From assembly GCA_031549085.1 (NCBI GenBank), contig JAVBQL010000019.1, forward strand, positions 696-64,695: a DNA stretch of 64,000 nt. Direction: 5' to 3'. The notes under the pieces are model-generated. The model worked only from the letters and a program-made list of their open reading frames with translations. It had not been told where the DNA came from and made no database searches. The DNA comes from Spirochaetota bacterium. Its GTDB lineage: Bacteria > Spirochaetota > GWE2-31-10 > MWDO01. The translations under genes were made by a program, and so were the position numbers. Positions 30,525 through 54,191 of this stretch are shown here, piece after piece; the stretch's first letter is position 1; every line of letters starts with the position of its first letter.

Positions 30525-30534
30525 AGGCTTTTTT

Positions 30535-30574
30535 CTAATCCCCCCCCAACCCCCTTTTGTCAAAAAGGGGGCTT
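30535..30574 (+). repeat. GC-hairpin module copy a (CTAATC-C8-AA-CCCCCTTTT-GTCA-AAAAGGGGG-CTT)
   Basis: Starts 11 nt after the nth stop. 9-bp stem with five G:C pairs in an AT-rich genome. Same family as 32717, 34951, 36308, 40787, 44348 and 44731. Confidence 0.8.
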
Positions 30575-30647
30575 AAACTAAGAGGTTTAACTATATAACT
30601 TGCTTCCTCATAATAAACAGAGTTTTTTTGTTTATGTAAAAACGACC

Positions 30648-30737
30648 GGTTTGTCTTTTTTGTGATATGCAAGTCAATTTTTTGAAATCGTACACGATTA
30701 GAAAAAATTTTTGTTGCATACCACAGCAAGACAAACC
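30648..30737 (-). repeat. Structured core unit U1 (reverse orientation, diverged)
   Basis: Reverse complement reads GCAACAAAAATTTT...AAAAAATTGACTTGC. Outer arms GGTTTGTCTTTTTTGTGATATGC / GCATACCACAGCAAGACAAACC are largely complementary. Confidence 0.6.
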
Positions 30738-30993
30738 TACTTGCTAACATTTCTTTCCTCATAACCCATAATAAATAACATACTTTTTTTGTACTATATC
30801 ATTGTTTTTTATTTTTTAAATTTAGAAACTAAAACTTTTTTCCCATACAAGATACCCATCAAAAAGGACGTGGCTAGTAAAAAAAACGTGGGAACTAAAA
30901 AAGTAAAAAAACTTGTAATTTTTAAAAATAAATACGATAAATATAGTATGTTAACTTTTCCTAAAGAAATTCAAACAGCTTTACTCTGTCACC

Positions 30994-32370
30994 ATGGAAA
31001 CTAACCTAAAGAACACCGTTAAAGAGAGCTCCATTATACTATTTAGTATTATAAAATGGGGAATCTTGGCTCTGATTATTGGTGTTGTGACAGGTCTTGC
31101 CGCTGGACTCTTTACAAAGACTCTCAACTTTTGTAGTGGCATAACTGGTAAATTTGAATATTACTACTTTGCATTGCCTATAATATTTTTTATTAATGGA
31201 CTTGCTCTTCTCTATATTTTTCCAAACGCCAATGTATACACAACAAACAAGCTTATTGAACATGTAAATAACAGAAAACCAATACCAATAATGTCCATCC
31301 CAAAAGTATTTATCCTCTCTATAGTAACATTAAGTTCTGGCGGTTCACTTGGAAAAGAGGCTCCAGTTGCTGACATAGGCGGCAGTCTAGCCTCTGCCTT
31401 TGGAAAACTGCTTCGGCTAAAAGAGGAGGACTTAAGCAAGCTTATGGTTTGTGGCATTAGTGCTGGTTTTGCAGCGATATTGGGGACACCAATTGCAGGC
31501 AGCCTATTTGGTGCAGAGGTGCTCTTTGTTGGAGGCATCCTCTATGAAGTACTCCTCCCCTCATTCTTTGCGGGAATTGTAAGCTTTAAGGTTAGCCAAA
31601 TGGTGCTTGGGGCTAATTCACACCCATTTATAATAGCAAATATTCCAGAGTTCAATAAATTTTTCTTTCTTCAAGTTATTGCTGCAGGTATTTTTTTTGG
31701 AATATGCTCTATAATTTTGATAGAGTCTATAAAATTAAACAAGGTTCTATATAACAAAATTAAGGTGTGGAAACCATTTAAAAATATATGGGGCGGAGTT
31801 TTTTTAGTGGTTCTTGCACTGCTTATTGGCAAAGACTATTTGGGATTGGGTGAAAATGTGGTCGCTGCTGCTATAAGCGGAGAAAAAATTGTAATTTACG
31901 CTTTTCTATTAAAAATTCTATTCACCTCAATAACCTACTCATGGGGAGGTGTTGGAGGTATGATCTCACCTCTGCTTTTTATTGGGGCTACAGCTGGGGC
32001 AGCATTTGCCAACATTATGGGATATGACCCAACAATATTTGCCGCACTTGGCTTTGTAAGTGTTCTTGCTGGAGCAACCAACACTCCAATATCAGCATCA
32101 ATCCTTGCAATAGAGCTCTTTGGTCCTGCAATTGGTGTATATGCCGCTGTCTCATCACTCTTAAGCTTTCTTATCACAGGGAACAGAACCCTCTTTCCTG
32201 CACAAATTTTAAAGATAAAAAAATCTTCATCACTAAATCTTGAGACTGGAAAGACAATGGAGGATACAAATATCTCCTATGACAATTATAATAGGAAAAA
32301 GCTAAAAGAGGTTTATAATAGTGTCAAAACGAAGCTAAACATAAAAAGCAAGAAAAAAGATGGGGAGTAG
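30994..32370 (+). CDS. ClC-family chloride/anion channel or antiporter
   Basis: GGSLGKEAP (GxEGP-like), GTPIAGSLFGAEVL and GGMISPLLFIGATAG motifs; ~10-12 TM helices. Confidence 0.8.
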   Translation: METNLKNTVKESSIILFSIIKWGILALIIGVVTGLAAGLFTKTLNFCSGITGKFEYYYFALPIIFFINGLALLYIFPNANVYTTNKLIEHVNNRKPIPIMSIPKVFILSIVTLSSGGSLGKEAPVADIGGSLASAFGKLLRLKEEDLSKLMVCGISAGFAAILGTPIAGSLFGAEVLFVGGILYEVLLPSFFAGIVSFKVSQMVLGANSHPFIIANIPEFNKFFFLQVIAAGIFFGICSIILIESIKLNKVLYNKIKVWKPFKNIWGGVFLVVLALLIGKDYLGLGENVVAAAISGEKIVIYAFLLKILFTSITYSWGGVGGMISPLLFIGATAGAAFANIMGYDPTIFAALGFVSVLAGATNTPISASILAIELFGPAIGVYAAVSSLLSFLITGNRTLFPAQILKIKKSSSLNLETGKTMEDTNISYDNYNRKKLKEVYNSVKTKLNIKSKKKDGE

Positions 32371-32443
32371 AAATAAACTATTAATAATATTTTAATAGAG
32401 TTTTTAAAAAAACTTATCTAGCTAATTAACTATTGTTTTTAGC

Positions 32444-32590
32444 TTATGAGGATAATCACAAAGATTTTTGTATATTTCGTATAGAAGCAGAGATGCTTAA
32501 CGGTATTTTCTATCGATTTTAACATTTATAAAATTTTCATATTTACCTTTGGTTTATGAGGGATATCAACAAAGTTTTTTTTGTTTTTTC
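32444..32590 (+). repeat. Degenerate or partial core units
   Basis: Two direct copies of the 5' half TTATGAGG(G)ATA(A)TCA(A)CAAAG(A)TTTTT at 32444 and 32563, and a 3'-half-like TCTATCGATTTTA at ~32509. Confidence 0.45.
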
Positions 32591-32593
32591 ATA

Positions 32594-32671
32594 GGCTATT
32601 AAAGGGTATATAACAAAGATTTTATCTCGTTATTACGCCAATAAAATCGACTTATATATCCTTTAATAGCC
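32594..32671 (+). repeat. Structured core unit U2 (type II)
   Basis: GGCTATTAAAGGGTATAT-AACAAAGATTTTATCTCGTTATTACGCCAATAAAATCGACTT-ATATATCCTTTAATAGCC. Arms are complementary apart from one G:T. Confidence 0.85.
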
Positions 32672-32716
32672 TTTTCTAACATAACTTAAAACTCTAATTA
32701 TAGCTAAACCTTCTTT

Positions 32717-32751
32717 AACCCCCTTTATGTAAAGGGGGTTGGGGGGATTAG
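32717..32751 (-). repeat. GC-hairpin module copy b
   Basis: AACCCCCTTTATGTAAAGGGGGTTGGGGGGATTAG. Lies 30 nt beyond the dsbD stop, in sense orientation to dsbD. Confidence 0.8.
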
Positions 32752-32780
32752 AAAAAGAGCATCTCTTTTGCACAAAAAAA

Positions 32781-34631
32781 CTAATCAATTGCCTTAAGCA
32801 AATCTCCCTTTGAATAGATATCCCTTAAACAAACTGGTCGAGTAAAATCATCACTTTTAAACACAGCAAGAAATGGAATTGATTTCGTTCCAAGTTTATC
32901 CATCAAAGTATCCGCCTCATAGTTGTAGTTGGTGATATCAGCAGTAAGAAAAACAATATCGTTATCATTGATTGTTTTAATAACCTTCTCATTTTGAAAA
33001 ACCATCGACTCTACAAACTTGCAGTTTATGCACCAATCTGCACTAAAGTTTACAATTACAGTCTTTCCATTCTCTATATTCTCTATTAGTTCTTCATAGC
33101 TATAGGTCTCTTTAATTATTTTCTCTTTGTTGCTATATTTCTCTGCCATAACAACATATGATAAAAATAGACCAAGGAGAATAATAACAAAAAACATAAT
33201 AATGGAGACAAATCTACTATTGTTAGATCTATTGATAGAACCAAAGTATCCATATTGAAAAAAAGCTATTGCAATAAATATTATAGAGAGTATGGTTGGA
33301 AGAACGAACTTATCCTCCATAACTGTCAAGAGAAAAAATATTGTGAATATTAGAAAGAAGCCCATTATTCTCTCAAAAACAATTGTCCACTCACCACTCT
33401 TTGGAATTATATTAACTATTTTTGGATTTATTAGAAATATTATATATGGAAGAGAAAAACCAAGCCCTATGGAGAGGAAGACCGAAAAAACGGTAACTAT
33501 ATTTTGTGAAAGCGTCCATACCAGAACCCCGCCAAGAAGTGGCCCACTGCATGGGGTTGCAAGAAGTGTTGCAAAGAGCCCTTTCAGAAATGAGTCCAAA
33601 TATTGATTTCTATTTCTAACATATATATTTGGAGAATTTATATTCCAAACGCCAAACATAGAGAGGCTTAATGCAAAGATAATCAGAATCATAACAATGA
33701 GAAATACACTATTCTGAAATAGCCCACCCCACTTTATGCCAAAGATAGCTATAAGGATTGCCAGTGCAATAAAGCTTAAAAGAATCCCAGAAATAAAGAA
33801 TATTATATTAAGTCTGAAGTTCTTTTTGTCATCATTGTTTTTTATAAGGCCAAGAATCTTTAAGCCTATAACAGGCAAAACACAAGGCATAAAGTTAAGT
33901 ATAAAGCCTGCAAGAAATCCAAGCAATATTGCAAACAGTATATTCCCAATAGCAATATTTTTTATATATACTGGAGAGAAGCTCTCATTAATTTCTGGAA
34001 TCAAATCTGCTGATAGATCTTTAATAGCTGTCAACCCCAAGCTCTCTTTTGTCTCTCCAATTTCATCTACAACCTCTAACGATTTATAGTAGAGAGTTCT
34101 TATATCGTGGCTTCTAAGGATAGGCTGATTTGATGCTATAATTTCATAATCTATCTTTTTTGTGTATGAAGTGCATGAATCCTTGCTACAAATTAGAGCA
34201 TCGAACTTAATAGTAAGTTTATATTTAGGAGGATTTTTAATATCTACTGAAATAGCAGCATCGCCATTTTCTACAACAAATGGAAGAAATATATAGGTCT
34301 CTCTCTCATATATATTGACACTATTTCCCTCAAAATCTTTATGCTTTTTTGGAGGCATGTATCTTGCCGGTGCAACTGTCAATTCTTCATCTTTATAAGA
34401 GACAGATATTGATGTTGGTTTTCCAGTTACTCCGCCCAAAGGGTTTCCATAGATATAGTACCCTTTTGGTATCAATACCCTTAAGGCTATAAAGCTGCTT
34501 TCACCCCTTATAACATCTACTGAAGCTCCAACAGGAGAGACCAAAAGTTTTGCCTCACTATAGGCAAAGAGAGAGGTTAAACAAAATAAAAATATAAAAA
34601 ATAATCTATTCAAAAATAATCTACTTTTCAA
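32781..34631 (-). CDS. dsbD: Thiol:disulfide interchange protein DsbD-like
   Basis: N-terminal periplasmic domain, a TM core with the paired-Cys motifs MPCVLPV and ATPCSGP, and a C-terminal thioredoxin WCINCK. Confidence 0.75.
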   Translation of the reverse strand: MKSRLFLNRLFFIFLFCLTSLFAYSEAKLLVSPVGASVDVIRGESSFIALRVLIPKGYYIYGNPLGGVTGKPTSISVSYKDEELTVAPARYMPPKKHKDFEGNSVNIYERETYIFLPFVVENGDAAISVDIKNPPKYKLTIKFDALICSKDSCTSYTKKIDYEIIASNQPILRSHDIRTLYYKSLEVVDEIGETKESLGLTAIKDLSADLIPEINESFSPVYIKNIAIGNILFAILLGFLAGFILNFMPCVLPVIGLKILGLIKNNDDKKNFRLNIIFFISGILLSFIALAILIAIFGIKWGGLFQNSVFLIVMILIIFALSLSMFGVWNINSPNIYVRNRNQYLDSFLKGLFATLLATPCSGPLLGGVLVWTLSQNIVTVFSVFLSIGLGFSLPYIIFLINPKIVNIIPKSGEWTIVFERIMGFFLIFTIFFLLTVMEDKFVLPTILSIIFIAIAFFQYGYFGSINRSNNSRFVSIIMFFVIILLGLFLSYVVMAEKYSNKEKIIKETYSYEELIENIENGKTVIVNFSADWCINCKFVESMVFQNEKVIKTINDNDIVFLTADITNYNYEADTLMDKLGTKSIPFLAVFKSDDFTRPVCLRDIYSKGDLLKAID

Positions 34632-34769
34632 AAAAACCTCCTAAAAAGTTTTTTTATTAGCCACACTCTTTTTGATAAATATTTTATATAAAAAAAAATA
34701 TTACCTTTCTAATTTTATGATAGAACAAGCTCTAACTCTTTCCCTTATTAAATCAATAGGCTTATTGTA

Positions 34770-34799
34770 AGATATAAAAAACAAAGGTTTTTTATATCT
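34770..34799 (+). repeat. Mini-hairpin carrying the AACAAAG loop motif
   Basis: AGATATAAAAAAC-AAAG-GTTTTTTATATCT, a perfect 13-bp stem directly upstream of U3. Confidence 0.5.
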
Positions 34800-34800
34800 G

Positions 34801-34894
34801 TTTCTTGTAGAGTATTTGGAGTATGTAACAAAGATTTTGTATATTTTTGCTTTCGCTAAAATCGAACAAAATCGACTTACATATTGCAGATACT
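34801..34894 (+). repeat. Structured core unit U3 (type I)
   Basis: TTTCTTGTAGAGTAT...GTAACAAAGATTTTGTATATTTTTGCTTTCGCTAAAATCGAACAAAATCGACTTAC...ATACTCTACAAGAAA. The basal 15 bp are perfectly paired and the upper stem pairs with G:T wobbles. Confidence 0.85.
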
Positions 34895-34950
34895 CTACAA
34901 GAAACAAAAAATCATCACCAATATCTATTTAGACAACAAGCTATATTCTT

Positions 34951-34986
34951 AACTCCCCCTTTATGTAAAGGGGGCAGGGAGATTAG
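34951..34986 (-). repeat. GC-hairpin module copy c
   Basis: AACTCCCCCTTTATGTAAAGGGGGCAGGGAGATTAG. Lies 30 nt beyond the stop of the SPFH gene at 35016, in sense orientation. Confidence 0.8.
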
Positions 34987-35015
34987 ATTTACAAAACCCT
35001 CTACATAAAATACTA

Positions 35016-35924
35016 CTATTTTTGTCCTTGGACAACCCCATAGTTATAGGGAACTGGCATATAGTTGTTGTTTGGAACATATTGACCATTCCACTTCTCA
35101 ACTCTTTTCTCTTCAATTGCAAGCTTTCGCAACTCAAGTTCAAGCTGCATATTTCTGCTAATTGATTCGTTATATATCCTTATCGCCTCACCCTCAACCT
35201 TTTTTGCATCAGCTCTAAGAAGTGCAGATTGCTTCTCTCCCTCTGCGATTGCAATTGTTGCAAGCTTGTCAGCCTCCGCCTGCTTAACCTTCTTTTGTGC
35301 ATCAAGCTCAGTTATCAAAAGCTCCTGCTCCTTCTGCTTTACCTCTTGAGCCTTACGCATTGTCTCCTGAATCTGTTTGTCAAACTCATCTGACCAGTCG
35401 TAGTTTACCACTTTCAAATCTGTTAGCTCAACAGGATAGTCAGCAAGTCTGCCCTTTATAACATCAAAGGAGTCCTTCACAATTTTCTCTTGAGATATTG
35501 GAAGTTCAAATATAGTATATCTACCTATAACAATCTTAAAGCCCTCAGTAATAGCGTTTGAAACAAGGCTCTTCATCTTCTCCTCACCAAAGTCCTGCCA
35601 CATATCTACAAGATCGTGAGCCTTATATTTGTAGAAAGCAATTATATCTGCTCCAATTGTTTGATTGTCTTTTGTGATAGCTCCACCCTTGCCAACTTCT
35701 ATATAGTAGTTTAATTGCAGAGGACGTATTGTTACCACCTCAATAGTTTGCACAAGTGGGATTTTGAAGTGCATGCCCGGCTCAAGAATTGTATCTGATA
35801 TAGAGCCCAATGTGAATTTTAATCCCTTTGAGCTTGATGGAATAACAGTAATTGATAGAGCAACCAGAGCTACAATTATTACAACTACTACTATTGTATA
35901 GATCATATTTTTGCTTACTTTCAT
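35016..35924 (-). CDS. SPFH/prohibitin-family membrane protein
   Basis: N-terminal TM helix, PHB domain, C-terminal coiled coil (QKEQELLITELDAQKKVKQAEADK). Confidence 0.75.
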   Translation of the reverse strand: MKVSKNMIYTIVVVVIIVALVALSITVIPSSSKGLKFTLGSISDTILEPGMHFKIPLVQTIEVVTIRPLQLNYYIEVGKGGAITKDNQTIGADIIAFYKYKAHDLVDMWQDFGEEKMKSLVSNAITEGFKIVIGRYTIFELPISQEKIVKDSFDVIKGRLADYPVELTDLKVVNYDWSDEFDKQIQETMRKAQEVKQKEQELLITELDAQKKVKQAEADKLATIAIAEGEKQSALLRADAKKVEGEAIRIYNESISRNMQLELELRKLAIEEKRVEKWNGQYVPNNNYMPVPYNYGVVQGQK

Positions 35925-36001
35925 TTCATTTTTTTCCTAATATTTATTTTTTTTTTAAATATAAATTCATAAATAGCTAATAACAAAAACTTTGTCCTAT
36001 T

Positions 36002-36114
36002 TTTTGCTTACTAGAGTATCTGGGATGTGTAACAAAGATTTTGTATATTTTGCTTTCAGCAAAATCGAACAAAATCGACTTACATATTGCAGATACTCTA
36101 GTAAGCAGCAAAAA
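36002..36114 (+). repeat. Structured core unit U4 (type I)
   Basis: TTTTGCTTACTAGAGTATCTG...GTAACAAAGATTTTGTATATTTTGCTTTCAGCAAAATCGAACAAAATCGACTTAC...CAGATACTCTAGTAAGCAGCAAAA. Confidence 0.85.
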
Positions 36115-36145
36115 GTCATCATCAATACATATTTGGCTAACAAGT

Positions 36146-36251
36146 CCAGCTCATCGTTAAAAGCCGTTAAGATATATAACAAAGATTTTATCTCGTTATT
36201 ACGCCAATAAAATCGACTTATATGTCTTAATGGCTTTTAACGATGAGCTGG
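36146..36251 (+). repeat. Structured core unit U5 (type II, 32-bp outer stem)
   Basis: CCAGCTCATCGTTAAAAGCCGTTAAGATATAT-AACAAAGATTTTATCTCGTTATTACGCCAATAAAATCGACTT-ATATGTCTTAATGGCTTTTAACGATGAGCTGG. 30 Watson-Crick pairs plus 2 G:T. The 41-nt centre is identical to U2. Confidence 0.9.
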
Positions 36252-36307
36252 TTTCGGCTCTCTTTATTAACCTATTATTACTTTAATCAATATTTCCAAT
36301 AATCCTT

Positions 36308-36331
36308 AACCACCCCCTTTTTGAAAAGGGC
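36308..36331 (-). repeat. GC-hairpin module copy d (degenerate)
   Basis: AACCACCCCCTTTTTGAAAAGGGC. Lacks the GGGGGGATTAG tail. Lies ~100 nt beyond the dapA stop. Confidence 0.4.
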
Positions 36332-36437
36332 TTTTTCTTTCCACGTCCTTTTTAACAAATATTTTGTATAAAAAGAATATTATCTTTCTAACCTTGAGGG
36401 GATTAGTAAAAAAAACTCCTCCACACCCACATTTTTT

Positions 36438-37319
36438 TTATATTTTATATTTCTCTTTTAATTCCTTTAAAATAGAGACACTTGCACTTGACGCCTCACA
36501 AATAGGCAGTCTAAAGACACTCTTAATTTTGCCCATCATATATAGAAGAGTCTTTGCTGGGATTGGATTTGTCTCTATAAAAAGCTTGATAAACATCTCA
36601 TCAAGCTGATAGTGCTCATCTCTCATCTTATCAAACTGACCATTAAGTCCAAGATTTACAAAATCGACTACTCTCTTTGGAATAACATTTGAAGCAACAG
36701 ATATTACTCCATCTCCACCAATCGCCATAAGCGGAAGTGTCAGCCTGTCATCGCCTGAAAGAACAGCAAAATCTCTCTTTATTTTTTTAGTTGTCTTAAT
36801 AACGTCCATCATTTGAGTGATAGAGCCTGATGCCTCTTTAACACCAACTATATTATCAATCTCTGCAAGTTTTGCTAGAGTTGAGGTCTCAAGGTTTATC
36901 CCAGTACGCCCCTGTATATTGTAGACAACAATAGGGATATCACACTTTTCAGCTATTGTTTTAAAGTGACGGTATAGGCCCTCTTGAGTAGGTTTATTGT
37001 AGTATGGCACAACTTGAAGAGATGAGTTTGCACCAACCTTTTTGGCAAAGTTGGTCATCTCAATTGCTTCGTCTGTGGAGTTTGAGCCGGTACCTGCCAT
37101 AACATGAAGCCTGCCCTTTGCTTGTTCGACAGCTATCTCGATTAGACGATCATGCTCTCTATATGAGAGAGTTGGAGATTCACCAGTAGTACCGCAAGGA
37201 ACAATACCAGTTACCCCTCCCTTTACCTGCTCCTCTATTAAGTTTCGAAATGAGCTCTCATCGATAGAACCATCACTGTTAAATGGTGTTACCAATGCTG
37301 TAAAAGTACCTCTTAACAT
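36438..37319 (-). CDS. dapA: 4-hydroxy-tetrahydrodipicolinate synthase
   Basis: GTTGESPTLS motif and GVKEASG (active-site Lys). Confidence 0.9.
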   Translation of the reverse strand: MLRGTFTALVTPFNSDGSIDESSFRNLIEEQVKGGVTGIVPCGTTGESPTLSYREHDRLIEIAVEQAKGRLHVMAGTGSNSTDEAIEMTNFAKKVGANSSLQVVPYYNKPTQEGLYRHFKTIAEKCDIPIVVYNIQGRTGINLETSTLAKLAEIDNIVGVKEASGSITQMMDVIKTTKKIKRDFAVLSGDDRLTLPLMAIGGDGVISVASNVIPKRVVDFVNLGLNGQFDKMRDEHYQLDEMFIKLFIETNPIPAKTLLYMMGKIKSVFRLPICEASSASVSILKELKEKYKI

Positions 37320-37525
37320 AGCTTTACCCTTATAAAATAATTTTTTATTGCTTATATCTAACTATTAAATAAAAATAGTTAATTTGTCAAAATTTTTATT
37401 ATGGTTATTATGATTTATTTTATTCTCTTTAATTTTGTTATCTTTGAAAGGGAGTATGAGTAGTGTTAGGGATAGTTTTTTTTAAAAAAAATGTTCCACT
37501 ACTTAACATAGTGGGAGTACTCAAT

Positions 37526-38440
37526 CTACAAAGGACGAACTTTCATTAGGTTGTAATAAAACTCATGTTTGAAAACCCCATACCTCATTGATATCAACCA
37601 CAAATAGTCCTCATCAATAGCAAGATCCACAACCTCACCAATTTTCAAATATTCGACAGTAATATTTTTTAGTTCTGGACGAATAATTTTAATTTCCCCA
37701 TTGGAATACTCATATGTATGTTTATGTAAATGAGTAGTACTATATTCATCATAGTTTAATGGGATTTCCCATACAGTATCACCATAAAATTTATTAATAT
37801 GAACAGTTGAAAAAGAGGTAGATATATTATCAATGGTATATATATAGCTATCAGTTGTAGAGTCATATGTGTACTCTACAATTTTACTACCCATGTATAT
37901 CATAATTCTATCTGTTACCCTGTTATAGTCAATAATGGTACTCTTAATATTATCAAATGTTATTAATCTCTTATTACCTCCATCTAAGTCCATCTGCAAG
38001 TATCTTCTGGTAGTTTCTGGAATATCTACTCTTTTTTCAATAGTAAAAAAAAAGATTGATACAACTATTTTTTCATCATGCACTAATATTTTATAGTTTC
38101 TATCAAAATTACGATATCTATAGAGACTCATATCAACAGAGAGATCAACTACTGGATCTATTGCAATTCTGTTTTGTAATTTTAACTTCTCATCAAAAAC
38201 ACGCACTGTTTTTTGATCATATATATAAAAAAGATCATTATACTTTGATATTGATGGATAGAATGAGTCGCTAGATGTATCCAATGCAACTCCACCACTA
38301 AACAGAACCTCCACCCCAGCTTTTAGTGGGTCATATTCATACTCAGAGGGTGGTGGACACGTAGCCCAGATATCCCCACAGCTTATTAATAGAGATAGAA
38401 CAGCAATACTTAAAGTAAAACAGGTAATTATTCTTTTCAT
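37526..38440 (-). CDS. Lipoprotein of unknown function
   Basis: Signal peptide plus lipobox LLISC. Confidence 0.45.
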   Translation of the reverse strand: MKRIITCFTLSIAVLSLLISCGDIWATCPPPSEYEYDPLKAGVEVLFSGGVALDTSSDSFYPSISKYNDLFYIYDQKTVRVFDEKLKLQNRIAIDPVVDLSVDMSLYRYRNFDRNYKILVHDEKIVVSIFFFTIEKRVDIPETTRRYLQMDLDGGNKRLITFDNIKSTIIDYNRVTDRIMIYMGSKIVEYTYDSTTDSYIYTIDNISTSFSTVHINKFYGDTVWEIPLNYDEYSTTHLHKHTYEYSNGEIKIIRPELKNITVEYLKIGEVVDLAIDEDYLWLISMRYGVFKHEFYYNLMKVRPL

Positions 38441-38499
38441 AACAGTCTTCCTTACTAAACACTAGAGAGTACAACCAGTCCTGCAATTACAAAACAGCC

Positions 38500-40281
38500 T
38501 TAATCCAAAATCGCCTTTATTCTTCTCACTCCTGCAGAGGAGGATTGCTCTTTCACTATCTTAAAGTGGTGAAGCTCACTTGTGTTATTCACATGTGGAC
38601 CGCCGCAAACTTCAATACTAAAGTCACCAATGGTATACATCTTAACCTTCTCATCATATTTTCCAGTGAATAGAGCTATTGCCCCTCGCTTCTTCGCCTC
38701 ATCAAGGGTCACAATCTCCATAGTAATAGGAATAGCCCTTTTTATCTGCTCGTTTACCAACTCTTCAACTTTTTTAAGGTCTGCATCATCAATTTTATCA
38801 GGGTGAGTAAAGTCGAACCTAAGCCTTGTTGCATCAATGTTTGAACCCTTTTGAGCAACATGGTCTCCTAATATTTTTTTCAATGCTGTATGCAAAAGAT
38901 GTGTCGCCGTATGAAGTCTTGTTGTCGCCTCACTATGATCAGCCAAACCGCCCTTAAAGCTATCAGTTTGTGCCTGCTGAGAGAGAGCCTTATGCTTTTC
39001 AAAAGCCTCATTAAAGCCAGCCTCATCAACAGAGAGCCCATTTTCAGCCGCCACCTCTTTTGTAAACTCCAGTGGGAAGCCATAAGTATCATATAGTCTA
39101 AATGCCACACGCCCAGAGATCATTGTTTGATTATTCTCTTTAAGCTTTGGCATAATTTTCTCAAGCTCTTTCAAGCCGCTCTCGATTGTCTCCTCAAACT
39201 TTTTCTCCTCTCTAGTTAGCTCTTCATATATTTTAGATTCGTTTGTTTTTAACTCTGGATAGAACTCAGCCATCAAATCGACAACAATCTTTGCAATCTT
39301 AGCAAGGAATAGCTCATTTATTGAGAGCTGCTTTCCATAGCGGATAGCACGGCGAATCAATCTTCGAAGAACATAGCCAGCTCCAACATTTGAGGGGGCA
39401 ATCCCCCTCTCATCACCAATTATAAAAACTGATGTCCTAATATGGTCAGCAACTATCCTCATAGCTTTTGTGATAGCTGCACTCTCGCCATACTTTTTTC
39501 CAGATATCTCCTCAATCTTTGCGATTATTGGGGTAAAGCTCTCCGTCTCATAGACAGTCTCTTTGCCTGTCAGCATAGCAACTGTACGCTCAATTCCCAT
39601 GCCTGTATCAACATTTTTTTGGGAGAGCGGTGTATAGCTCCCATCTTTATTTTTATTATACTGCATAAAGACATCGTTCCATATCTCGATATACTTACCG
39701 CAATGGCAGCCCGGTGAACAGTCAGCCCCACAAGCCGTTAACCCTGTATCAATAAACATCTCTGTGTCTGGCCCACAAGGTCCAGTGAGTCCAGCAGGTC
39801 CCCACCAGTTGTCCTTCTTTGGCTTGTAGTATATATGAGAATCCTCAACACCAAGAGACTTCCAAATAGCAGCCGACTCATCATCACGAGGAGCATCACT
39901 GTCCCCCTCAAAGACGGTTATATATATCTGATCTTTTTTAAAGCCAAGCTCTTTTATTAGAAACTCAAAGGAGTACTCAATTGCCTCTTTTTTAAAGTAG
40001 TCTCCGATTGACCAGTTTCCAAGCATCTCAAAAAAGGTCAAGTGAGATGAGTCTCCAACCTCATCAATATCTCCAGTACGTATACACTTTTGATAGTCAA
40101 CAAGCCTCTTCCCTTGTGGGTGCGGTTCTCCCAAAAGGTATGGAACAAGCGGGTGCATTCCTGCTGTTGTAAAGAGAACAGTCGGGTCGTTTTCAGGTAT
40201 TAATGAGGCATATTTAATTTCGCTATGCCCCTTTGATTTGAAAAAATCTATATATTTCTTTCGTAAAATTCTAAAATCCAT
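38500..40281 (-). CDS. alaS: Alanyl-tRNA synthetase, short form lacking the C-Ala domain
   Basis: FTTAGM class II motif, editing-domain HTATHLLH and CGGPHV. The ORF ends right after the editing domain at 593 aa. Confidence 0.85.
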   Translation of the reverse strand: MDFRILRKKYIDFFKSKGHSEIKYASLIPENDPTVLFTTAGMHPLVPYLLGEPHPQGKRLVDYQKCIRTGDIDEVGDSSHLTFFEMLGNWSIGDYFKKEAIEYSFEFLIKELGFKKDQIYITVFEGDSDAPRDDESAAIWKSLGVEDSHIYYKPKKDNWWGPAGLTGPCGPDTEMFIDTGLTACGADCSPGCHCGKYIEIWNDVFMQYNKNKDGSYTPLSQKNVDTGMGIERTVAMLTGKETVYETESFTPIIAKIEEISGKKYGESAAITKAMRIVADHIRTSVFIIGDERGIAPSNVGAGYVLRRLIRRAIRYGKQLSINELFLAKIAKIVVDLMAEFYPELKTNESKIYEELTREEKKFEETIESGLKELEKIMPKLKENNQTMISGRVAFRLYDTYGFPLEFTKEVAAENGLSVDEAGFNEAFEKHKALSQQAQTDSFKGGLADHSEATTRLHTATHLLHTALKKILGDHVAQKGSNIDATRLRFDFTHPDKIDDADLKKVEELVNEQIKRAIPITMEIVTLDEAKKRGAIALFTGKYDEKVKMYTIGDFSIEVCGGPHVNNTSELHHFKIVKEQSSSAGVRRIKAILD

Positions 40282-40385
40282 AATATCTCCAAAATATCAT
40301 TTAAACAGCTTTTTATCATAAAATATTATAATAGTATATAACAAATTATAAGCAAAAATTGAAACAAAATCTCTATTTTTTTTTT

Positions 40386-40484
40386 GATGTAGAATAGTAA
40401 GATATACATAACAAAGATTTTTGTATTCATTTTGAAAAAATGACCAACAAAAATCGACTTATGTGTACCATACTATTCTACATC
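40386..40484 (+). repeat. Structured core unit U6 (type I variant)
   Basis: GATGTAGAATAGTAAGATATACAT-AACAAAGATTTTTGTAT-TCATTTT-GAA-AAAATGA-CCAACAAAAATCGACTT-ATGTGTACCATACTATTCTACATC. Confidence 0.85.
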
Positions 40485-40530
40485 TGTTCGACAAAATTGA
40501 GTGATACTGCATATATAAAGATTGAAAATA

Positions 40531-40607
40531 AGATACAGTACAACAAAGATTTTGTATATTTTGCGAAAGCAAAATCGAACAAAATTGGCTTATCTACTCT
40601 GTTATCT
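40531..40607 (+). repeat. Structured core unit U7 (type I, weaker outer stem)
   Basis: AGATACAGTAC-AACAAAGATTTTGTATATTTTGCGAAAGCAAAATCGAACAAAATTGGCTTA-TCTACTCTGTTATCT. Confidence 0.7.
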
Positions 40608-40610
40608 GTA

Positions 40611-40680
40611 AGGTATAATAAAATCGATTAAAATATCTCATCCATAACCACAAAACCAATAAAAGCGACTTATATTGTGA
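40611..40680 (+). repeat. Fragments carrying only the 3' core motif
   Basis: ATAAAATCGATTA (~40617) and AATAAAAGCGACTTATATT (~40658), without a matching 5' half. Confidence 0.4.
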
Positions 40681-40686
40681 AGTTAA

Positions 40687-40770
40687 AAGATGGGTGATAC
40701 AATAGCATAACAAAGATTTTATATTGCTTGCACGAATAAAATCGACTTATGCTATTGTATCACCCATCTT
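40687..40770 (+). repeat. Structured core unit U8 (type II, perfect 22-bp outer stem)
   Basis: AAGATGGGTGATACAATAGCAT-AACAAAGATTTTATATTGCTTGCACGAATAAAATCGACTT-ATGCTATTGTATCACCCATCTT. Confidence 0.9.
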
Positions 40771-40786
40771 GTTTTTTTATCTCTTA

Positions 40787-40830
40787 AACTCCCTGCCCTT
40801 ATGTTAAGGGCGGGGATGGGGGTGGGTTAG
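40787..40830 (-). repeat. GC-hairpin module copy e (G-rich variant)
   Basis: AACTCCCTGCCCTTATGTTAAGGGCGGGGATGGGGGTGGGTTAG. This is the only copy not next to a gene 3' end. Confidence 0.7.
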
Positions 40831-41003
40831 AATAAAAAACTTTCCTTCTCCCCTCTAAAGACAACAAAATCTCTACTTTTTTTTAAAAAAGATTGTTTAT
40901 AATGAAAAAGTTTGCTATTATAAAAATGTAAATTTAAGTTGTTTTAATCAATTTTTAAACTTCTTTTGTGACAAAAAACTTAAAACTATAAGGATAACCA
41001 TTA

Positions 41004-42446
41004 ATGAAAAGCAGAGAAAGATTTTTATGGATTACACTTACATGTACTTTTGCGTTCGTTATTTTATTCACTCTCTTTGTAAATGCAAGTACAAGCTCTT
41101 CCGTTTCTAACAAATCAATTCAAAAATTTCTAACTGTACTAGAAAAAGTTAAGAGAGACTATGTTGATGATAAGGCATTGGATGACAAAAAACTCATTAA
41201 TGGCGCAATAAAGGGTATGCTTGATGCAATTGGCGATCCGCATACTGTATATCTATCTCCTGAAGAGTTAAGCGATCTACGAAGTACATCAGAGGGAGCT
41301 TTTGGCGGTGTTGGTATGATTATCTCAGAGAGAGATGACTACACAGTGGTTGTATCTCCAATTGAGGACACCCCAGCATACAAAAAGGGTATGAAGCCTG
41401 GAGATTTGATCATAACTGTTGATGGAAAATCTACAAAGGGACTTCGTGTTGATGAGGTTGCAAAGATGCTTAAAGGGACACCTGGCACATCAGTTAAAAT
41501 TGAGTTTTTGCGTGATGAGGTTAAATTTGAAGTTGAGCTTATACGTGCAAATATAGATTTCCCAAGTGTGAAGAGTGGATATATCGGTGATAACAACAAA
41601 TATGGATACCTAAGAATAACACAATTTGCAGGAACAACAAGCAAGCATGTTCATGATGAGCTTATCAAACTTATGAATAATAAGATTGAGGGACTTATTG
41701 TAGATCTCAGAATGAATCCGGGTGGACTTCTAAGGCAGGTTGTTGAGATTGTAGACTACTTCCAAGATGATGGTGTTATAGTATCAACTAAGGGAAGAAG
41801 TATTTTTAGTGACAGCATTGAGAAGGCAAACAAGTTTAATACAATTGTACCAAAGAATATACCTATGATAGTTCTGATAGATGATGGTTCAGCTTCAGCA
41901 TCTGAAATTTTTGCAGGAGCTGTGAAAGATACAAACAGAGCAATACTCGTTGGAGATAAATCTTATGGAAAGGGCTCTGTTCAGACATTCCATGAGCTTG
42001 ATGGTGGAGTTGATGGATTTAAGCTTACAATTGCTAAATATTACACTCCTTCAGGTATATGTATAGATGGCATTGGAATTGAGCCTGATATCAAAGTTAA
42101 AGAGCCAGAATTCAGCGAGCAAGAGAAGGAGACTCTAAAGAAGTTGTATACAGATAAAATCATTGACCAATATGTGAAGAAGAACCCAAAGGCAAATCAA
42201 GATGAAGTCAACAAGTGGGTTGCCGAATTGAAAACAAAGGGCTACAACCTACCAGATAAATATCTCAAAAAATTATTCAAAAATGCTCTTGATATAAGTG
42301 TAGAGAACAAACCACCTTATGACCTTGAATATGATATTCAACTGCAAAAGGCTTTGGAGATATTAAACAAGAAAGAGTATCAATACAATGATGGACAGTA
42401 CAACATAGTGAAACAGGATAACACAAAGACAGGGACAGCAAATTAA
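41004..42446 (+). CDS. ctpA: C-terminal processing (S41, tail-specific) peptidase
   Basis: PDZ domain, GSASASEIF (catalytic Ser) and GKGSVQ (catalytic Lys). Confidence 0.85.
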   Translation: MKSRERFLWITLTCTFAFVILFTLFVNASTSSSVSNKSIQKFLTVLEKVKRDYVDDKALDDKKLINGAIKGMLDAIGDPHTVYLSPEELSDLRSTSEGAFGGVGMIISERDDYTVVVSPIEDTPAYKKGMKPGDLIITVDGKSTKGLRVDEVAKMLKGTPGTSVKIEFLRDEVKFEVELIRANIDFPSVKSGYIGDNNKYGYLRITQFAGTTSKHVHDELIKLMNNKIEGLIVDLRMNPGGLLRQVVEIVDYFQDDGVIVSTKGRSIFSDSIEKANKFNTIVPKNIPMIVLIDDGSASASEIFAGAVKDTNRAILVGDKSYGKGSVQTFHELDGGVDGFKLTIAKYYTPSGICIDGIGIEPDIKVKEPEFSEQEKETLKKLYTDKIIDQYVKKNPKANQDEVNKWVAELKTKGYNLPDKYLKKLFKNALDISVENKPPYDLEYDIQLQKALEILNKKEYQYNDGQYNIVKQDNTKTGTAN

Positions 42447-42464
42447 AAATAGATAGTATATAAA

Positions 42465-42500
42465 AAGTAGAGAGCTTAAACCGGCTCTCTACTTTTTCTT
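42465..42500 (+). terminator. Intrinsic terminator of ctpA
   Basis: AGTAGAGAGC-TTAAACCG-GCTCTCTACT followed by TTTTCTT. Confidence 0.6.
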
Positions 42501-42557
42501 AAATTTGGGAGATCTATTTATATAGAAGATAACCTATATTCACTTAGGAGACTATTT

Positions 42558-43049
42558 ATGGAAGTATTTAAATCTTCATTTTTTGTTTTGATGCTACTTT
42601 GTATTATAGGTTTTATAAAACCTTATAATACAAATGCCAACACTAAGATCAATGGCCGTGCAAAAATATTACATGATGCTAGAAAAAAGATTAATAGTAA
42701 TAATGAGGTTTTTGGTGAATATGATTGTTTAAGCACTAAGAAAGCTAATTTCAGTATGATGAATGATTTCAGTATGATATGGAATGAAGAGTATCTATAC
42801 TTTTACTATACAAATAGTTATGATTATATCTATACAATATACAGAATAAAAATTAAAAATTTTACCGATGAATCATTTGCTGAAGATAGGAGTGAGAAAT
42901 ATAGTTATAAGAGTTCGTTGGAATATATAGATGAAAAAGGATTTTTTGGAGAATATGGTACTACAATCTACTATAGCCTATCACCTGATAGTAACTATCT
43001 ACATCTATCTTATGATAAAAAGTATCTTCGTTTTAAAAGATTAAAATAG
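42558..43049 (+). CDS. Small secreted protein of unknown function
   Basis: N-terminal hydrophobic signal-like segment and AGGAG upstream. No recognisable family. Confidence 0.35.
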   Translation: MEVFKSSFFVLMLLCIIGFIKPYNTNANTKINGRAKILHDARKKINSNNEVFGEYDCLSTKKANFSMMNDFSMIWNEEYLYFYYTNSYDYIYTIYRIKIKNFTDESFAEDRSEKYSYKSSLEYIDEKGFFGEYGTTIYYSLSPDSNYLHLSYDKKYLRFKRLK

Positions 43050-43104
43050 TATTTTTCTAAATCTTCTAAATTTATAAAAAAGAAATTTATAATAGGATAA
43101 AAAA

Positions 43105-44337
43105 ATGGATAACATAAAAGTTGCAGAGAAACCGCTTCTAAACAATGTAAATGGCTTTTTAGATTTTGGAATTGCATGTGGACTAAAAAAGAGTAGTGCC
43201 TTAGATTTGGGAGTGGTATACTCAATTGTTCCATCAACAGTCTTTGCAAAGTTTACTACAAATAAGTATAAGGCAGCCCCGCTATTGGTAGATATAGAGA
43301 ACCTAAAAAAGAGTAAAAATAGGGCAAGACTACTGATTGTAAACAGTGGAAACGCCAACGCCTGCACAGGTGAAAAGGGATTCAATGACTCTTTAAAGAC
43401 ATGTGAGGTTGGAGCAGAACTATTTGATGTAAACACAAATGAAGTTCTTGTCTCTTCAACCGGCGTAATTGGTGTAAACCTTGATGTCAATAAAGTTGTT
43501 GGTGGCTTAAAAACTATACACTCATCTTTTATAAAGAGTGGAAAAGAGCATTCAAATAATTTTTCAAAGGCTATAATGACAACTGATACAAAAGAGAAGG
43601 TCTTTGAAGTCAAGGTAAATGATGATGGAAGCCAATACTCTATATATGGCTGCTGTAAGGGTTCAGGTATGATCCACCCAAATATGGCGACAATGCTCTG
43701 CTATTTATTTACAGACTGCAATATTGAAGATTCACTTTTAGAGAGTGCGTTTACGGAGATTGTTGATTTAAGCTTCAATTCGATAAGTGTTGATGGTGAC
43801 ACAAGCACCAATGATACTGTTATGATTTTTAAAAATGGTCTTGCAAACAACAAGATTATTGATAATAAAAAGAGCGAGAGCTATCACACATTTTACAATG
43901 CACTTCTTCTAACAGCAACAGAGCTTGCAAAAAAAGTTGTTGAGGATGGTGAGGGAGCAACAAAGCTAATAGAGATAGATATAAAAAATGCAGCAACACT
44001 CTCTATGGCAAAAAATATTGCAAAATCCATTGCTCGCTCAAGTTTAGTAAAGACAGCTATGTTTGGTGAAGATGCAAACTGGGGAAGAGTTATCTGTGCA
44101 GTAGGTTACAGCGGAGAGAACTTTGATACAAACAAGCTTAAACTCTCAATAGGTGATCTTCTCCTATTTGAAAATGGGCTTAATCACCCTTTTGATGAGG
44201 AAGCAGCGAAAGAGATCCTAGCCAAAAAAAATATCACAATAACTGTTGATATCGGGATGGGAGATATCTCCTACAAATATTGGACATGTGATTTGAGCTA
44301 TGAATATGTAAAGATCAATGCTGACTATCGCTCGTAA
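43105..44337 (+). CDS. argJ: Bifunctional ornithine acetyltransferase / N-acetylglutamate synthase
   Basis: Autoprocessing site HPNMATMLCYL and the KGSGMIHP motif. Confidence 0.9.
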   Translation: MDNIKVAEKPLLNNVNGFLDFGIACGLKKSSALDLGVVYSIVPSTVFAKFTTNKYKAAPLLVDIENLKKSKNRARLLIVNSGNANACTGEKGFNDSLKTCEVGAELFDVNTNEVLVSSTGVIGVNLDVNKVVGGLKTIHSSFIKSGKEHSNNFSKAIMTTDTKEKVFEVKVNDDGSQYSIYGCCKGSGMIHPNMATMLCYLFTDCNIEDSLLESAFTEIVDLSFNSISVDGDTSTNDTVMIFKNGLANNKIIDNKKSESYHTFYNALLLTATELAKKVVEDGEGATKLIEIDIKNAATLSMAKNIAKSIARSSLVKTAMFGEDANWGRVICAVGYSGENFDTNKLKLSIGDLLLFENGLNHPFDEEAAKEILAKKNITITVDIGMGDISYKYWTCDLSYEYVKINADYRS

Positions 44338-44347
44338 AGCCCTATCT

Positions 44348-44392
44348 CTAATCCCCCCAACCCCCTTTTATCAAAAAGGGGGCTTTAAAAAG
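44348..44392 (+). repeat. GC-hairpin module copy f, the left inverted terminus of the 420-bp mosaic
   Basis: CTAATCCCCCCAACCCCCTTTTATCAAAAAGGGGGCTTTAAAAAG. Starts 11 nt after the argJ stop. Confidence 0.85.
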
Positions 44393-44418
44393 AGGATTCT
44401 TGCTTAGATATGAGCGGG

Positions 44419-44511
44419 AGTTTTTGCTAAGACACAAAAGAGTCGATTTTTGTTAGAACTTTCTTACGAAAGTAATACAAAAATCTTTATCTTTTGCATC
44501 TTATAAAACTC
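44419..44511 (-). repeat. Structured core unit U9 (reverse orientation)
   Basis: Reverse complement reads ...TAAAGATTTTTGTATT-ACTTTC-GTAA-GAAAGT-TCTAACAAAAATCGACT... Outer arms GAGTTTTTGCTAAGACACAAAAGA / TCTTTTGCATCTTATAAAACTC are mostly complementary. Confidence 0.75.
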
Positions 44512-44582
44512 CCTAAATTATAAAAAACTATTCGCAATATATAAGTTTTTTTTAATAAACAAGCTTATCGCTGACAAATCAA

Positions 44583-44683
44583 ACAAAAAGATAAATGAGA
44601 TGCCAAAAACAAAGCTTTTTTTATATTTTGCACAGCAAAATCGAACAAAAAGCGACTTTTAGGTATCTTGTTTATCTTTTTGT
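44583..44683 (+). repeat. Structured core unit U10 (type I)
   Basis: ACAAAAAGATAAATGAGATGCCAAAA-ACAAAGCTTTTTTTATATTTTGCACAGCAAAATCGAACAAAAAGCGACTT-TTAGGTATCTTGTTTATCTTTTTGT. Confidence 0.75.
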
Positions 44684-44724
44684 CTTTATTACAATAAAAA
44701 AGCTATTTTTTTTGAACTAGCCTT

Positions 44725-44769
44725 CTTTTTAAAGCCCCCTTTTTGATAAAAGGGGGTTTGGGGGATTAG
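44725..44769 (-). repeat. GC-hairpin module copy g, the right inverted terminus of the mosaic
   Basis: The reverse complement CTAATCCCCCAAACCCCCTTTTATCAAAAAGGGGGCTTTAAAAAG matches copy f at 44 of 45 positions. Ends 7 nt from the stop of the PhoU-fusion gene. Confidence 0.85.
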
Positions 44770-44775
44770 AAAAAG

Positions 44776-53737: not shown

Positions 53738-53753
53738 ATGGTTATCTTTAAAA

Positions 53754-54155: not shown

Positions 54156-54191
54156 AATAGATAATCTTGTTTTTTAAAAAAAAACTAACTT

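Follow-up and report, generated by a model that had tools for sequence, protein, structure and literature searches.

The DNA considered here is a 64-kb window (the whole stretch that was analysed, in which all positions below are counted) from contig JAVBQL010000019.1 of a Spirochaetota bacterium, assembly GCA_031549085.1. It is a segment of a bacterial chromosome with 33% GC and carries housekeeping genes, for example dapA, alaS, metG, argJ, pst/phoU, flgG and parA/parB. The host organism is uncultured; its DapA has a single exact match among the proteins searched, the next-best matches are metagenomic proteins that are 77-78% identical, and named matches, which are metagenome-assembled genomes labelled Spirochaetes, are at most 64% identical. 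Between the genes of this segment lies a family of 11 long hairpins (LHs; copies c1-c11) of about 65-115 nt, accompanied by a second conserved unit, the GC module (m). Together they form a composite that looks like a previously undescribed repeat, an unusual relative of the interspersed palindromic repeats (repetitive extragenic palindromes, REPs; bacterial interspersed mosaic elements, BIMEs; miniature inverted-repeat transposable elements, MITEs) and not a recognised RNA gene.

An earlier note on this DNA, made from the letters of the sequence, had listed 11 intact copies of an intergenic hairpin of roughly 80-110 nt. All 11 were found at, or within a few bases of, the positions that it gave, and a map of the open reading frames (ORFs) agrees that every one is intergenic. 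The note took this hairpin for the whole unit, which proved too narrow: the LH is one part of a composite with the GC module, which had been missed. Apart from c11, all units lie within a 14-kb part of the window (Table 1).

Layout and folding of the long hairpins

The LHs have one layout in common, arm / TAA-CAAA-GATTTT / apex / AAAATC-GAC-TTA / arm, and each copy folds as a single long hairpin. An outer stem of about 12-34 bp, closed by TAA/TTA, leads in all copies to a 4x3 internal loop in which CAAA lies opposite GAC, then to an 8-bp helix (GATTTTNN:NNAAAATC), and finally to a variable apex. The apex is of two types, either short (ATCTCGTTATTACGCC and similar) or long (GTAT, a small hairpin, CNAAC). 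Relative to dinucleotide shuffles, the fold z-scores lie between -8.5 and -15 in nine of the 11 copies, which are intact and complete, and are weaker in the decayed c7 (-3.4) and in c11 at the window end (-3.5).

Compared in pairs, the copies are on average 83% identical over the core but only 40% over the arms and 41% over the apex. The conserved centre and variable arms described in the earlier note are borne out. The box AACAAAGATTTT, with at most one mismatch, occurs 16 times in the window against 2.65 expected, a number reached by none of 100 shuffles, and the box AATCGACTTA is exact in seven LH copies. A covariance model, which the note had proposed as a check, was built from the alignment and finds exactly the 11 window LHs and no others in the 64 kb, with scores of 59-81 bits forward against 12-26 bits reverse. 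The LHs match their own model by construction; what is informative here is the lack of extra matches and the asymmetry between strands. Because forward and reverse scores differ in this way, the core is asymmetric and an orientation of the family, here called unit-forward, is defined.

Three candidate roles were tried for the LH and rejected. A kink-turn is a poor description of the CAAA/GAC loop, as by inspection its tandem G.A register breaks the GATTTT:AAAATC helix, with a closing C.C pair. A coding role was considered because an ORF spans c4 and c5, and was dropped on finding that the frame is not the same between copies. The match of the core to an IHF site is not convincing.

Pairing, strand bias and the layering of the arms

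Covariation was analysed in an alignment of the core and 14 nt of each arm from 12 sequences, namely the 11 window copies and a homologue on contig L013, several of which are related by descent. In this alignment 93.2% of the cells pair, against 72% after shuffling and 36-50% when the 3' partner is slid. Both sides have changed in 17 of the 22 LH pairs, and none of 500 shuffles attains any of the five measures. The compensating changes to which the earlier note had drawn attention are thus statistically supported.

On the unit-forward strand, the arm pairs of the LHs comprise 264 Watson-Crick pairs, 17 G:T, 2 A:C and 9 other mismatches (G:T versus A:C, p=7e-4), and the note was right that mismatches read in this orientation are mostly G:T. 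The two reversed copies (c1 and c9) have three G:T and one A:C in their own orientation, which suggests, on small numbers, that the G:T bias tracks the orientation of the unit and not the strand of the chromosome. In the inner arms, c3 and c4 differ at four pairs, each of which is Watson-Crick in one copy and G:T in the other. Since G:T exceeds A:C, and since the inner changes between c3 and c4 are of this kind, it is the unit-forward strand that must fold, as RNA or as single-stranded DNA (ssDNA).

The LHs are built in layers: all members of the family have the core in common, the inner arms go by subfamily, and beyond about 14 bp from the core each copy has outer layers of its own. Copies c3 and c4 have the inner 17 bp in common, and the blocks that surround them are homologous over about 200 bp including flanks. 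The arms of c2 and c5 are related, the 3' flank of c2 aligning with the outer 3' arm of c5 and the homology continuing towards the GC module, while the inner arm of c1 (GGTATGCAA/TTGCATATC) is also present in the L013 copy, from another organism, c1 and L013 having GGTATGCAA/TTGCATAY...CAAAAAG in common. There is, moreover, a weak arm consensus across the family, TTAAGATATATAA/TTATATATCTTAA. A search for the stem arms elsewhere in the window gave no match besides that between c3 and c4. The earlier view that the outer stems are unrelated between copies yet complementary is overstated: the arms are complementary and their outer layers copy-specific, but the inner arms are common to c3/c4, c2/c5 and c1/L013.

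Positions that are not Watson-Crick are concentrated near the core, with 2 of 125 lying beyond 14 bp and 25 of 154 within 14 bp (Fisher p=2e-5); near-perfect outer layers are as expected if these are young or repeatedly re-copied. In the outer arms of c3 and c4, inside the homologous blocks, the differences are T-A>G-C, G-C>C-G and one paired indel, and a transversion between the arms of the two copies has no route through a wobble intermediate. Copy c3 has the apical loop TTTC and c4 has TTTCA, but in c7 the loop is GAAA, the inverse of that in c3, as in a loop inversion. Pairs of the 5'G-3'C type outnumber 5'C-3'G pairs in the LH arms by 50 to 26 (p=0.008). One small perfect hairpin (Table 1) appears, from what it retains, to be a snap-back or deletion derivative of an LH.

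Template switching is known to make perfect stems, to fix and extend them, to invert loops and to bias pairs to G-C and U-A (PMC8794818; PMC5453318), and when the switch is intrastrand it is predicted to favour 5'G-3'C pairs (PMC8794818). The perfection of the outer layers, the compensated c3/c4 changes, the loop inversion together with the snap-back hairpin, and the excess of G-C pairs all argue for DNA copying from arm to arm. The earlier note had considered an insertion mechanism that creates inverted duplications of the flank. The near-perfect outer arms and the compensated c3/c4 changes do agree with a copying process, but one of in-place, arm-to-arm template switching, which fits better than flank-duplicating insertion. 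Comparable structures were looked for, as a control, in the remaining 49 kb of the window, which contain one perfect 14-bp terminator stem (60995-61026) and otherwise a few weak inverted repeats of at least 16 nt that are 72-88% complementary.

The GC module and the composite

The second conserved unit, of about 60 nt, was found by a scan for GC-rich hairpins and by alignment, and has seven copies in the window, at 30.5-44.8 kb. It consists, in order, of CCTTCTTTTTAAAG, the hairpin CCCCCTTTTT-GAT-AAAAGGGGG, TT, GGGGGG and ATTAGAAAAAG, and ends in ATTAGAAAAA. Every GC module lies 20-76 nt downstream of the last LH in an array of one to three LHs, in constant relative orientation. A hidden Markov model of the module found no further copies in the window or in the relatives' loci, and one more on contig L001, which comes from the same organism. 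Module m5 is split by an insert of about 65 nt that carries an LH-core-like fragment (AACAAATATTTTGTATA).

In six of the seven modules the ATTAGAAAAA end is 0-30 nt from an opposite-strand stop codon, the genes in question being those for HhH-GPD, DsbD, Band_7, DapA, ArgJ and PhoU/low-molecular-weight (LMW) phosphatase. The usual order is gene stop, T-run, CTAATCCCCCC, GC hairpin, spacer, LH or LHs antisense to the gene, and then the promoter region of the next gene. The composites lie between unidirectional or convergent genes, with the exception of the c6-c8/m8 array.

Read in the sense of the gene, the sequence after the GC hairpin is CUUUAAAAA, CUUAAAC or UUAAAG, which gives only two or three U. 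A terminator scan called one GC module only, at the degenerate m5 hairpin (36315). The L013 homologue of the GC hairpin has CUUUUUU after it. Canonical bidirectional intrinsic terminators, with A-tract, GC stem and T-tract, are present in the window at 42462-42497 and 60995-61026. Because such full-tract terminators occur in this genome, the GC module is probably not its standard terminator.

Table 1. Long hairpins, GC modules and derived fragments in the 64-kb window
Unit	Positions	Strand	Description
LH c1	30648..30737	-	core variant AACAAAAATTTT ... AAAATTGAC; 63.5 bits, z -8.5
LH c2	32593..32672	+	short apex; 45-nt core same as c5; 72.8 bits, z -10.1
LH c3	34800..34905	+	long apex; within ~200-bp block homologous to c4 block; 81.2 bits, z -10.7
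LH c4	36000..36113	+	long apex; first in c4-c5 array; 77 bits, z -11.8
LH c5	36146..36251	+	short apex; 34-bp arms with two G:T pairs; 69.4 bits, z -15.0
LH c6	40386..40484	+	apical loop GAAA; first in c6-c7-c8 array; 73.3 bits, z -10.6
LH c7	40531..40607	+	core intact, arms decayed by indels; apical loop GAAA; 58.7 bits, z -3.4
LH c8	40687..40770	+	arms perfect 24/24; 66.7 bits, z -12.8
LH c9	44416..44513	-	loop variant TAAA/GAC; apical loop GUAA; 71.9 bits, z -9.2
LH c10	44583..44683	+	divergent from c9, 69 nt apart foot to foot; 70.4 bits, z -9.7
LH c11	63937..64000	+	short apex; window end may truncate the 3' arm; 59.1 bits
GC module m1	30525..30585	-	CCTCTT..AAG, CCCCCTTTTT/AAAAGGGGG, TT, G-run, ATTAGAAAAAA; 76 nt downstream of c1; 5 nt from HhH-GPD stop
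GC module m2	32705..32765	+	downstream of c2; adjoins opposite-strand DsbD 3' end; 52.8 bits
GC module m3	34943..35003	+	downstream of c3; adjoins Band_7 3' end
GC module m5	36297..36410	+	downstream of c5; hairpin 36313-36332, GAGGGGATTAG at 36396-36406; adjoins dapA stop
GC module m8	40780..40845	+	diverged; downstream of c8; no adjoining gene end
GC module m9	44338..44398	-	downstream of c9; adjoins argJ stop
GC module m10	44723..44783	+	downstream of c10; begins at PhoU/LMW-phosphatase gene stop
Two truncated LH 5' halves	32445..32590	+	GAGGATAATCACAAAGATTTTTG, GAGGGATATCAACAAAGTTTTTT; 111 bp apart, local tandem duplication
Truncated LH 3' half	40620..40680	+	CCAATAAAAGCGACTTATAT; between c7 and c8
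Small perfect hairpin	34768..34801	+	AGATATAAAAAAC-AAAG-GTTTTTTATATCT; arm consensus and AACAAAG kept, core gone; 21.3 bits

Relatives, gain and turnover

In a relative represented by contig L034, whose Band_7 protein is 88% identical in amino acids, 15 bp separate the dapA stop from the Band_7 start, whereas the same junction in the window measures 513 bp and consists of m5, c5 and c4; the comparison is one between species and does not place the insertion point to the exact base. On another contig (L009) the order is dapA, 36 bp, TM2, 21 bp, DsbD. Neither the L034 locus nor the L009 locus contains an LH. Judged from these junctions, the composites have been added at places where relatives have 15-36 bp.

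The gene 3' of dapA varies among close relatives whose dapA is 92% identical in DNA: L007 and L009 have a TM2-domain gene there, and L034 has Band_7 and then an HsdS-like gene. Even without repeats, the locus 3' of dapA (window 34631-36440) is variable.

The homologue on L013 is a single LH in a related metagenomic organism. It sits upstream of a 4HBT gene, whereas c1, the neighbouring copy in the window, follows the HhH-GPD gene. The architecture is alike, with a diverged hairpin: a C-run, CCTTTCC...GGAAAGG, CTTTTTT and a reversed LH. In the window, truncated 5' halves, a truncated 3' half and the indel-ridden copy c7 lie beside intact LHs. The composites behave like proliferating, decaying DNA, unlike conserved regulatory RNAs.

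The Logan contigs that match window proteins (L001, L002, L006 and L030) are short and end at repeats. One of them, L001, was obtained from a second sample and is identical to the window from the c3 side via Band_7 through most of c4. At 424-604 of this contig, c4 is joined to another GC module and a glyoxalase-family gene, the switch falling at the outer 3' arm boundary. The junction may represent recombination between hairpins, or an assembly jump across the shared repeat; the glyoxalase gene is on no other contig.

A Y1-transposase gene was encountered in a relative whose DapA is 70% identical. There (L031, 8650-9745; also L032) a gene for a 165-aa Y1_Tnp protein, RAYT-like, adjoins dapA, and is flanked by REP hairpins (GTCTGTCCC-AAA-GGGACAGAC) whose sequence is unrelated to the LH or GC units. 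Systems of Y1 transposase and REP therefore occur in the clade.

Database searches were in keeping with the earlier note, in which the motif had not been recognised as any known RNA or repeat family. Against Rfam 15 the whole window gave no match at gathering thresholds; in a permissive search the best match on an LH was mir-548, with 41.7 bits against a gathering score of 90, and the rest were generic long-hairpin microRNA precursors below threshold. A BLAST search of plasmids and phages with the segment from c4 through m5 gave no match, and the 32-nt arm of c5, compared with phages for a spacer-like origin, gave a best E of about 0.9.

The exact two-box pattern was also searched for. In the JGI metagenomes it has 18 matches, of which L013 is the sole true member; four represent one Bacteroidales locus and the rest are chance matches. 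Three matches in the GTDB species genomes (two coding, one in a Bacteroidales promoter-like region) and one in the IMG/VR viral contigs were rejected as chance. The Bacteroidales locus is an orthologous intergenic segment, ACAAAGATTTTTGNC...GCAAAAAAAATCGACTTACATTTGCAAAT, on rumen contigs of 53-56% GC (L003 at 5773-5830, L012, L018 and L024). It has both boxes exact and lies upstream of a TAnnTTTG-type promoter motif, yet it scores 33-35 bits as an LH and is probably a coincidence of the search pattern. On the databases searched, the LH family appears to be restricted to one small clade.

What the composite may be

The account that we favour, though tentatively and at somewhat less than an even chance, is that the composite of LH and GC module is a lineage-specific, non-coding and non-autonomous mosaic repeat, a selfish DNA of REP/BIME or MITE kind. 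The element that spreads would be the arrangement seen in the window, with one to three LHs followed by the GC-hairpin/G-run/ATTAGAAAAA module, placed past stop codons and in every case antisense to the gene upstream. It has been added to gene junctions that were formerly tight, enlarging them, and would have multiplied locally as blocks of DNA including flanks, as in the case of c3 and c4. Its arms would be maintained by template switching during replication, with one arm serving as template for the other, and would so be repaired, re-perfected and lengthened; such copying would yield outer layers that are perfect yet copy-specific, compensated changes of several bases, and inverted loops. 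Purifying selection would act on the single-strand fold of the unit-forward strand, on the CAAA/GAC loop and on the GATTTT:AAAATC helix, with G:T tolerated and A:C not, as the observed bias suggests. The core would be recognised by a trans-acting, structure-specific protein encoded elsewhere, for example an HUH/Y1 nuclease acting on folded ssDNA.

A number of observations weigh against this account. Among the genes of the 64-kb window there is no transposase, nuclease candidate, Y1_Tnp or integrase. No target-site duplications were found at the LH feet, where the longest flanking direct repeat is 0-4 nt with no pattern common to the copies; nor do the feet have a conserved motif or a REP-type GTAG/CGTC tag, which leaves discrete transposition of the hairpin a conjecture. 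Template switching by itself leaves the excess of G:T over A:C unpredicted. The three GNRA-type apical loops and the tolerance of G:U are equally compatible with a role as RNA. With only 12 copies, some of them kin, the p-values overstate the number of independent events.

Replication strand is a further difficulty. The parA and parB (Soj/Spo0J) genes lie at 55196-56846, and the GC skew of the + strand is negative over most of the window, its running sum falling overall, with several 4-kb bins positive. The parAB genes and the falling skew suggest that the segment is origin-proximal and on one replichore. If so, the forward strand is probably not the lagging-strand template in nine of the 11 copies, skew and parAB being weak guides to this. 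Elements of the IS200/IS605 type prefer the lagging-strand template.

A possible alternative, although we doubt it, is that the LHs are a family of small structured RNAs, either small RNAs (sRNAs) or antisense/cis elements, made as unit-forward transcripts in which a protein or another RNA binds the internal loop; the LHs would then be insulated by the GC module from the convergent upstream gene. The tolerance of G:U and not of A:C (17 versus 2) is what such a family would show, as are the inner-arm differences between c3 and c4 (four of four Watson-Crick-to-G:U), the strong conservation of single-stranded LH positions, the very strong covariation, and the GNRA loops in three of the eight apical hairpins (GAAA, GAAA and GUAA). 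On the forward strand a CU-rich CCUUCUU motif precedes the GC hairpin, and the LH arrays face AT-rich regions that also carry the divergent promoters of neighbours. Their setting in the genome, however, argues against this reading. Copies c1, c3, c4 and c5 are antisense to both neighbours, the copies have no common upstream sequence or promoter, and the forward strand continues after the GC hairpin as UUGGGGGG, with no U-tract. An internal or upstream sigma-70 promoter was looked for and rejected, promoter-like sites being at shuffle frequency (54 against 57 in shuffles). The evolutionary pattern also argues against RNA genes: positions differ between related genomes, the units are absent at the tight junctions of relatives, many copies are truncated or decaying, the family occurs in one small clade only, and the outer arms are perfect and copy-specific where an arm at equilibrium would bear wobbles. 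The selected folded molecule envisaged in the earlier note is thus retained as a one-strand fold, and is weakened as an RNA by the four antisense copies of 11 and by positions that are not conserved.

A more specific proposal, which we consider improbable, is that the LHs are a new class of mobile or recombinogenic DNA site, whose folded strand is recognised by its CAAA/GAC loop, next to the GATTTT:AAAATC helix, and not by its ends. This would leave the arms open to rewriting or extension by snap-back synthesis, in an attC-like logic outside integrons, while terminator-plus-hairpin modules would be inserted at gene 3' ends and neighbouring genes occasionally rearranged.

We regard it as very unlikely that the LHs are an ordinary palindromic MITE in decay, whose arms reflect neutral divergence of identical long terminal inverted repeats (TIRs) and whose G:T pairs come from strand-biased mutation. 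The weak arm consensus TTAAGATATATAA/TTATATATCTTAA, the subfamilies with common arms, the clustering of copies, the decay of some, and the sub-threshold Rfam matches to long-hairpin microRNA precursors such as mir-548 would all suit a MITE of this kind. Yet the arms are 40% identical while 93% paired, and neutral decay that deep would destroy pairing. Copies c3 and c4 differ by compensated transversions and by a paired indel, and the G:T excess tracks the unit in the two reversed copies (three against one). There are no target-site duplications or conserved termini. A conserved middle between copy-specific termini was described in the earlier note as the opposite of the MITE pattern, and so it remains.

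We would give very little credence to another rival, that the LHs are attC-like, structure-specific sites of single-strand recombination, a gene and its downstream composite forming a cassette. The composite does lie directly past stop codons in an orientation fixed relative to the gene, the fold is strand-specific with structure conserved and sequence variable, and the Band_7 gene is placed between two direct LH blocks that are 92% identical; genes downstream of dapA differ among near relatives, and L001 links c4 to another gene precisely at the arm boundary. But the R''/R' core sites RYYYAAC/GTTRRRY are absent when the copies are read directly, the neighbours are housekeeping genes on both strands in a window without integrase, relatives vary 3' of dapA though LH-free, and the L001 junction may be an assembly chimera, its glyoxalase gene being found on no other contig.

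Scarcely credible is the idea that a short mobile core landed centrally in pre-existing palindromes such as terminator hairpins, the arms being target DNA: copy-specific arms and the T-runs after some hairpins (as c8) would agree with it, but the other 49 kb hold no LH-like long palindromes and hence the core did not simply land in them, complementarity reaches the conserved core with no loop remnant, arms of 24-34 bp far exceed the 14-15 bp of the genome's terminator stems, and the arm differences between c3 and c4 lie within homologous flanks.

Implications

If the mosaic-repeat account that we favour is true, this would be an interspersed repeat recognised by the internal loop of a folded strand, inverting the end-based architecture of MITEs and REPs. 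Its compensating stems would stem largely from template switching in DNA replication and not from stepwise selection on RNA. It would then also urge caution in taking covariation as evidence of a functional RNA, as the family passes a covariation test yet would act as selfish DNA. In a little-known lineage, the repeats would convert tight operon junctions into spacers with terminator, hairpin and promoter-like parts. Should the LHs prove to be an RNA family instead, they would constitute a multi-copy class of sRNA in an uncultured clade, unusual in being antisense to gene ends.

Other features of the window

Several further features of the window were recorded in passing. The stretch 2191-5362 encodes a 563-aa helicase of the XPB/Rad25 type and, after it and overlapping it, a 495-aa ORF with a weak Helicase_C_3 match; upstream of the helicase, 801-2191 is a region of 1.4 kb with short ORFs only. 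The alanyl-tRNA synthetase ORF at 37526-40281 has only 593 aa (catalytic domain and SAD); 60 bp beyond it begins an ORF of 304 aa without a Pfam match, and alaS may be split or truncated here.

Four small minus-strand ORFs of 127-151 aa occupy 53282-54999; the first matches DUF2752 and the second DUF4234, and the last three are paralogous, with 63-75% DNA identity and a periodicity of about 412-447 bp. On the minus strand at 56865-60869 are eight tandem paralogous genes of about 180 aa that match DUF6174 and are 60-85% identical in DNA. Adjoining this array, a 640-aa ORF at 61055-62977 contains, according to the contig annotation, a D12-class N6-adenine DNA methyltransferase domain.

Comparison with known systems

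REPs are elements of 20-40 bp in which the stem sequence is conserved and an unpaired GTAG or CGTC tag is present (PMC3116915, PMC3733652, PMC3479197). The units described here resemble REPs, BIMEs and REPINs in being non-coding palindromes that occur mainly just 3' of coding regions, between unidirectional or convergent genes. As with REP/BIME elements, they fold as single strands, lack target duplications and an adjacent transposase, and are lineage-specific; and, as in BIMEs, hairpin units of differing kinds, here LH and GC, form mosaic arrays. Unlike a REP, the LH measures 65-115 nt, has no tag, and conserves its internal loop and the adjoining helix while its arms vary. The hairpin of the GC module is REP-like in size, with 20-24 conserved nt, but is flanked by AAAG and TTGGGGGG and not by GTAG or CGTC.

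In MITEs it is the terminal inverted repeats that are conserved and the middle that varies, and the target is duplicated as a short direct repeat such as TA (PMC3184786). The LHs are like the long-hairpin MITEs (ERIC/IRU, Correia/NEMIS, RUP, YPAL) in being intergenic imperfect palindromes of about 100 nt, in many copies, that can fold as RNA or DNA, and also in their insertion between genes and their truncated or decaying members. The presence or absence of an insert, by which MITEs are recognised, is seen at the dapA-Band_7 junction, with 15 bp in L034 and 513 bp in the window. In contrast to MITEs, the termini of the LHs are copy-specific, conservation rises towards the centre, and the feet are without duplication.

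The attC sites of integrons have conserved R''/R' boxes at the base of the stem and lie in one-directional cassette arrays next to an integrase. With these the LHs have in common that they are imperfect palindromes right after a stop codon, in fixed orientation, with structure over sequence, a one-strand fold and an unpaired spacer. They differ in their 7-mers with a terminal AAC (ATATAAC, ATGTAAC, GCATAAC and the like), which have a purine in place of the required pyrimidine, and in that there is no GTTRRRY on the 3' side. Moreover, the conserved boxes of the LH are internal and not basal, and the genes around it are housekeeping genes on both strands, with no integrase in the window.

Hairpins produced by template switching share with the LHs their perfect stems, multi-base compensated changes made in one step, extension, loop inversion and an excess of 5'G-3'C (PMC8794818, PMC5453318). 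Template switching is a mutational mechanism only, however, and leaves the asymmetric core, the link to the GC module and the preference for G:T over A:C unexplained.

IS200/IS605 elements, finally, have two differing, conserved subterminal hairpins and a conserved 4-5-nt target by the left end, and HUH enzymes act on ssDNA hairpins (PMC6006769). The LH feet are unlike the ends of IS200/IS605 elements and PATEs in having no conserved 4-5-nt motif, and no TnpA was found. They are like these ends in that the hairpins are strand-specific and imperfect, there are no target duplications or TIRs, and the orientation of insertion is fixed. Like elements derived from IS200/IS605, the composite holds two distinct types of hairpin, LH and GC.

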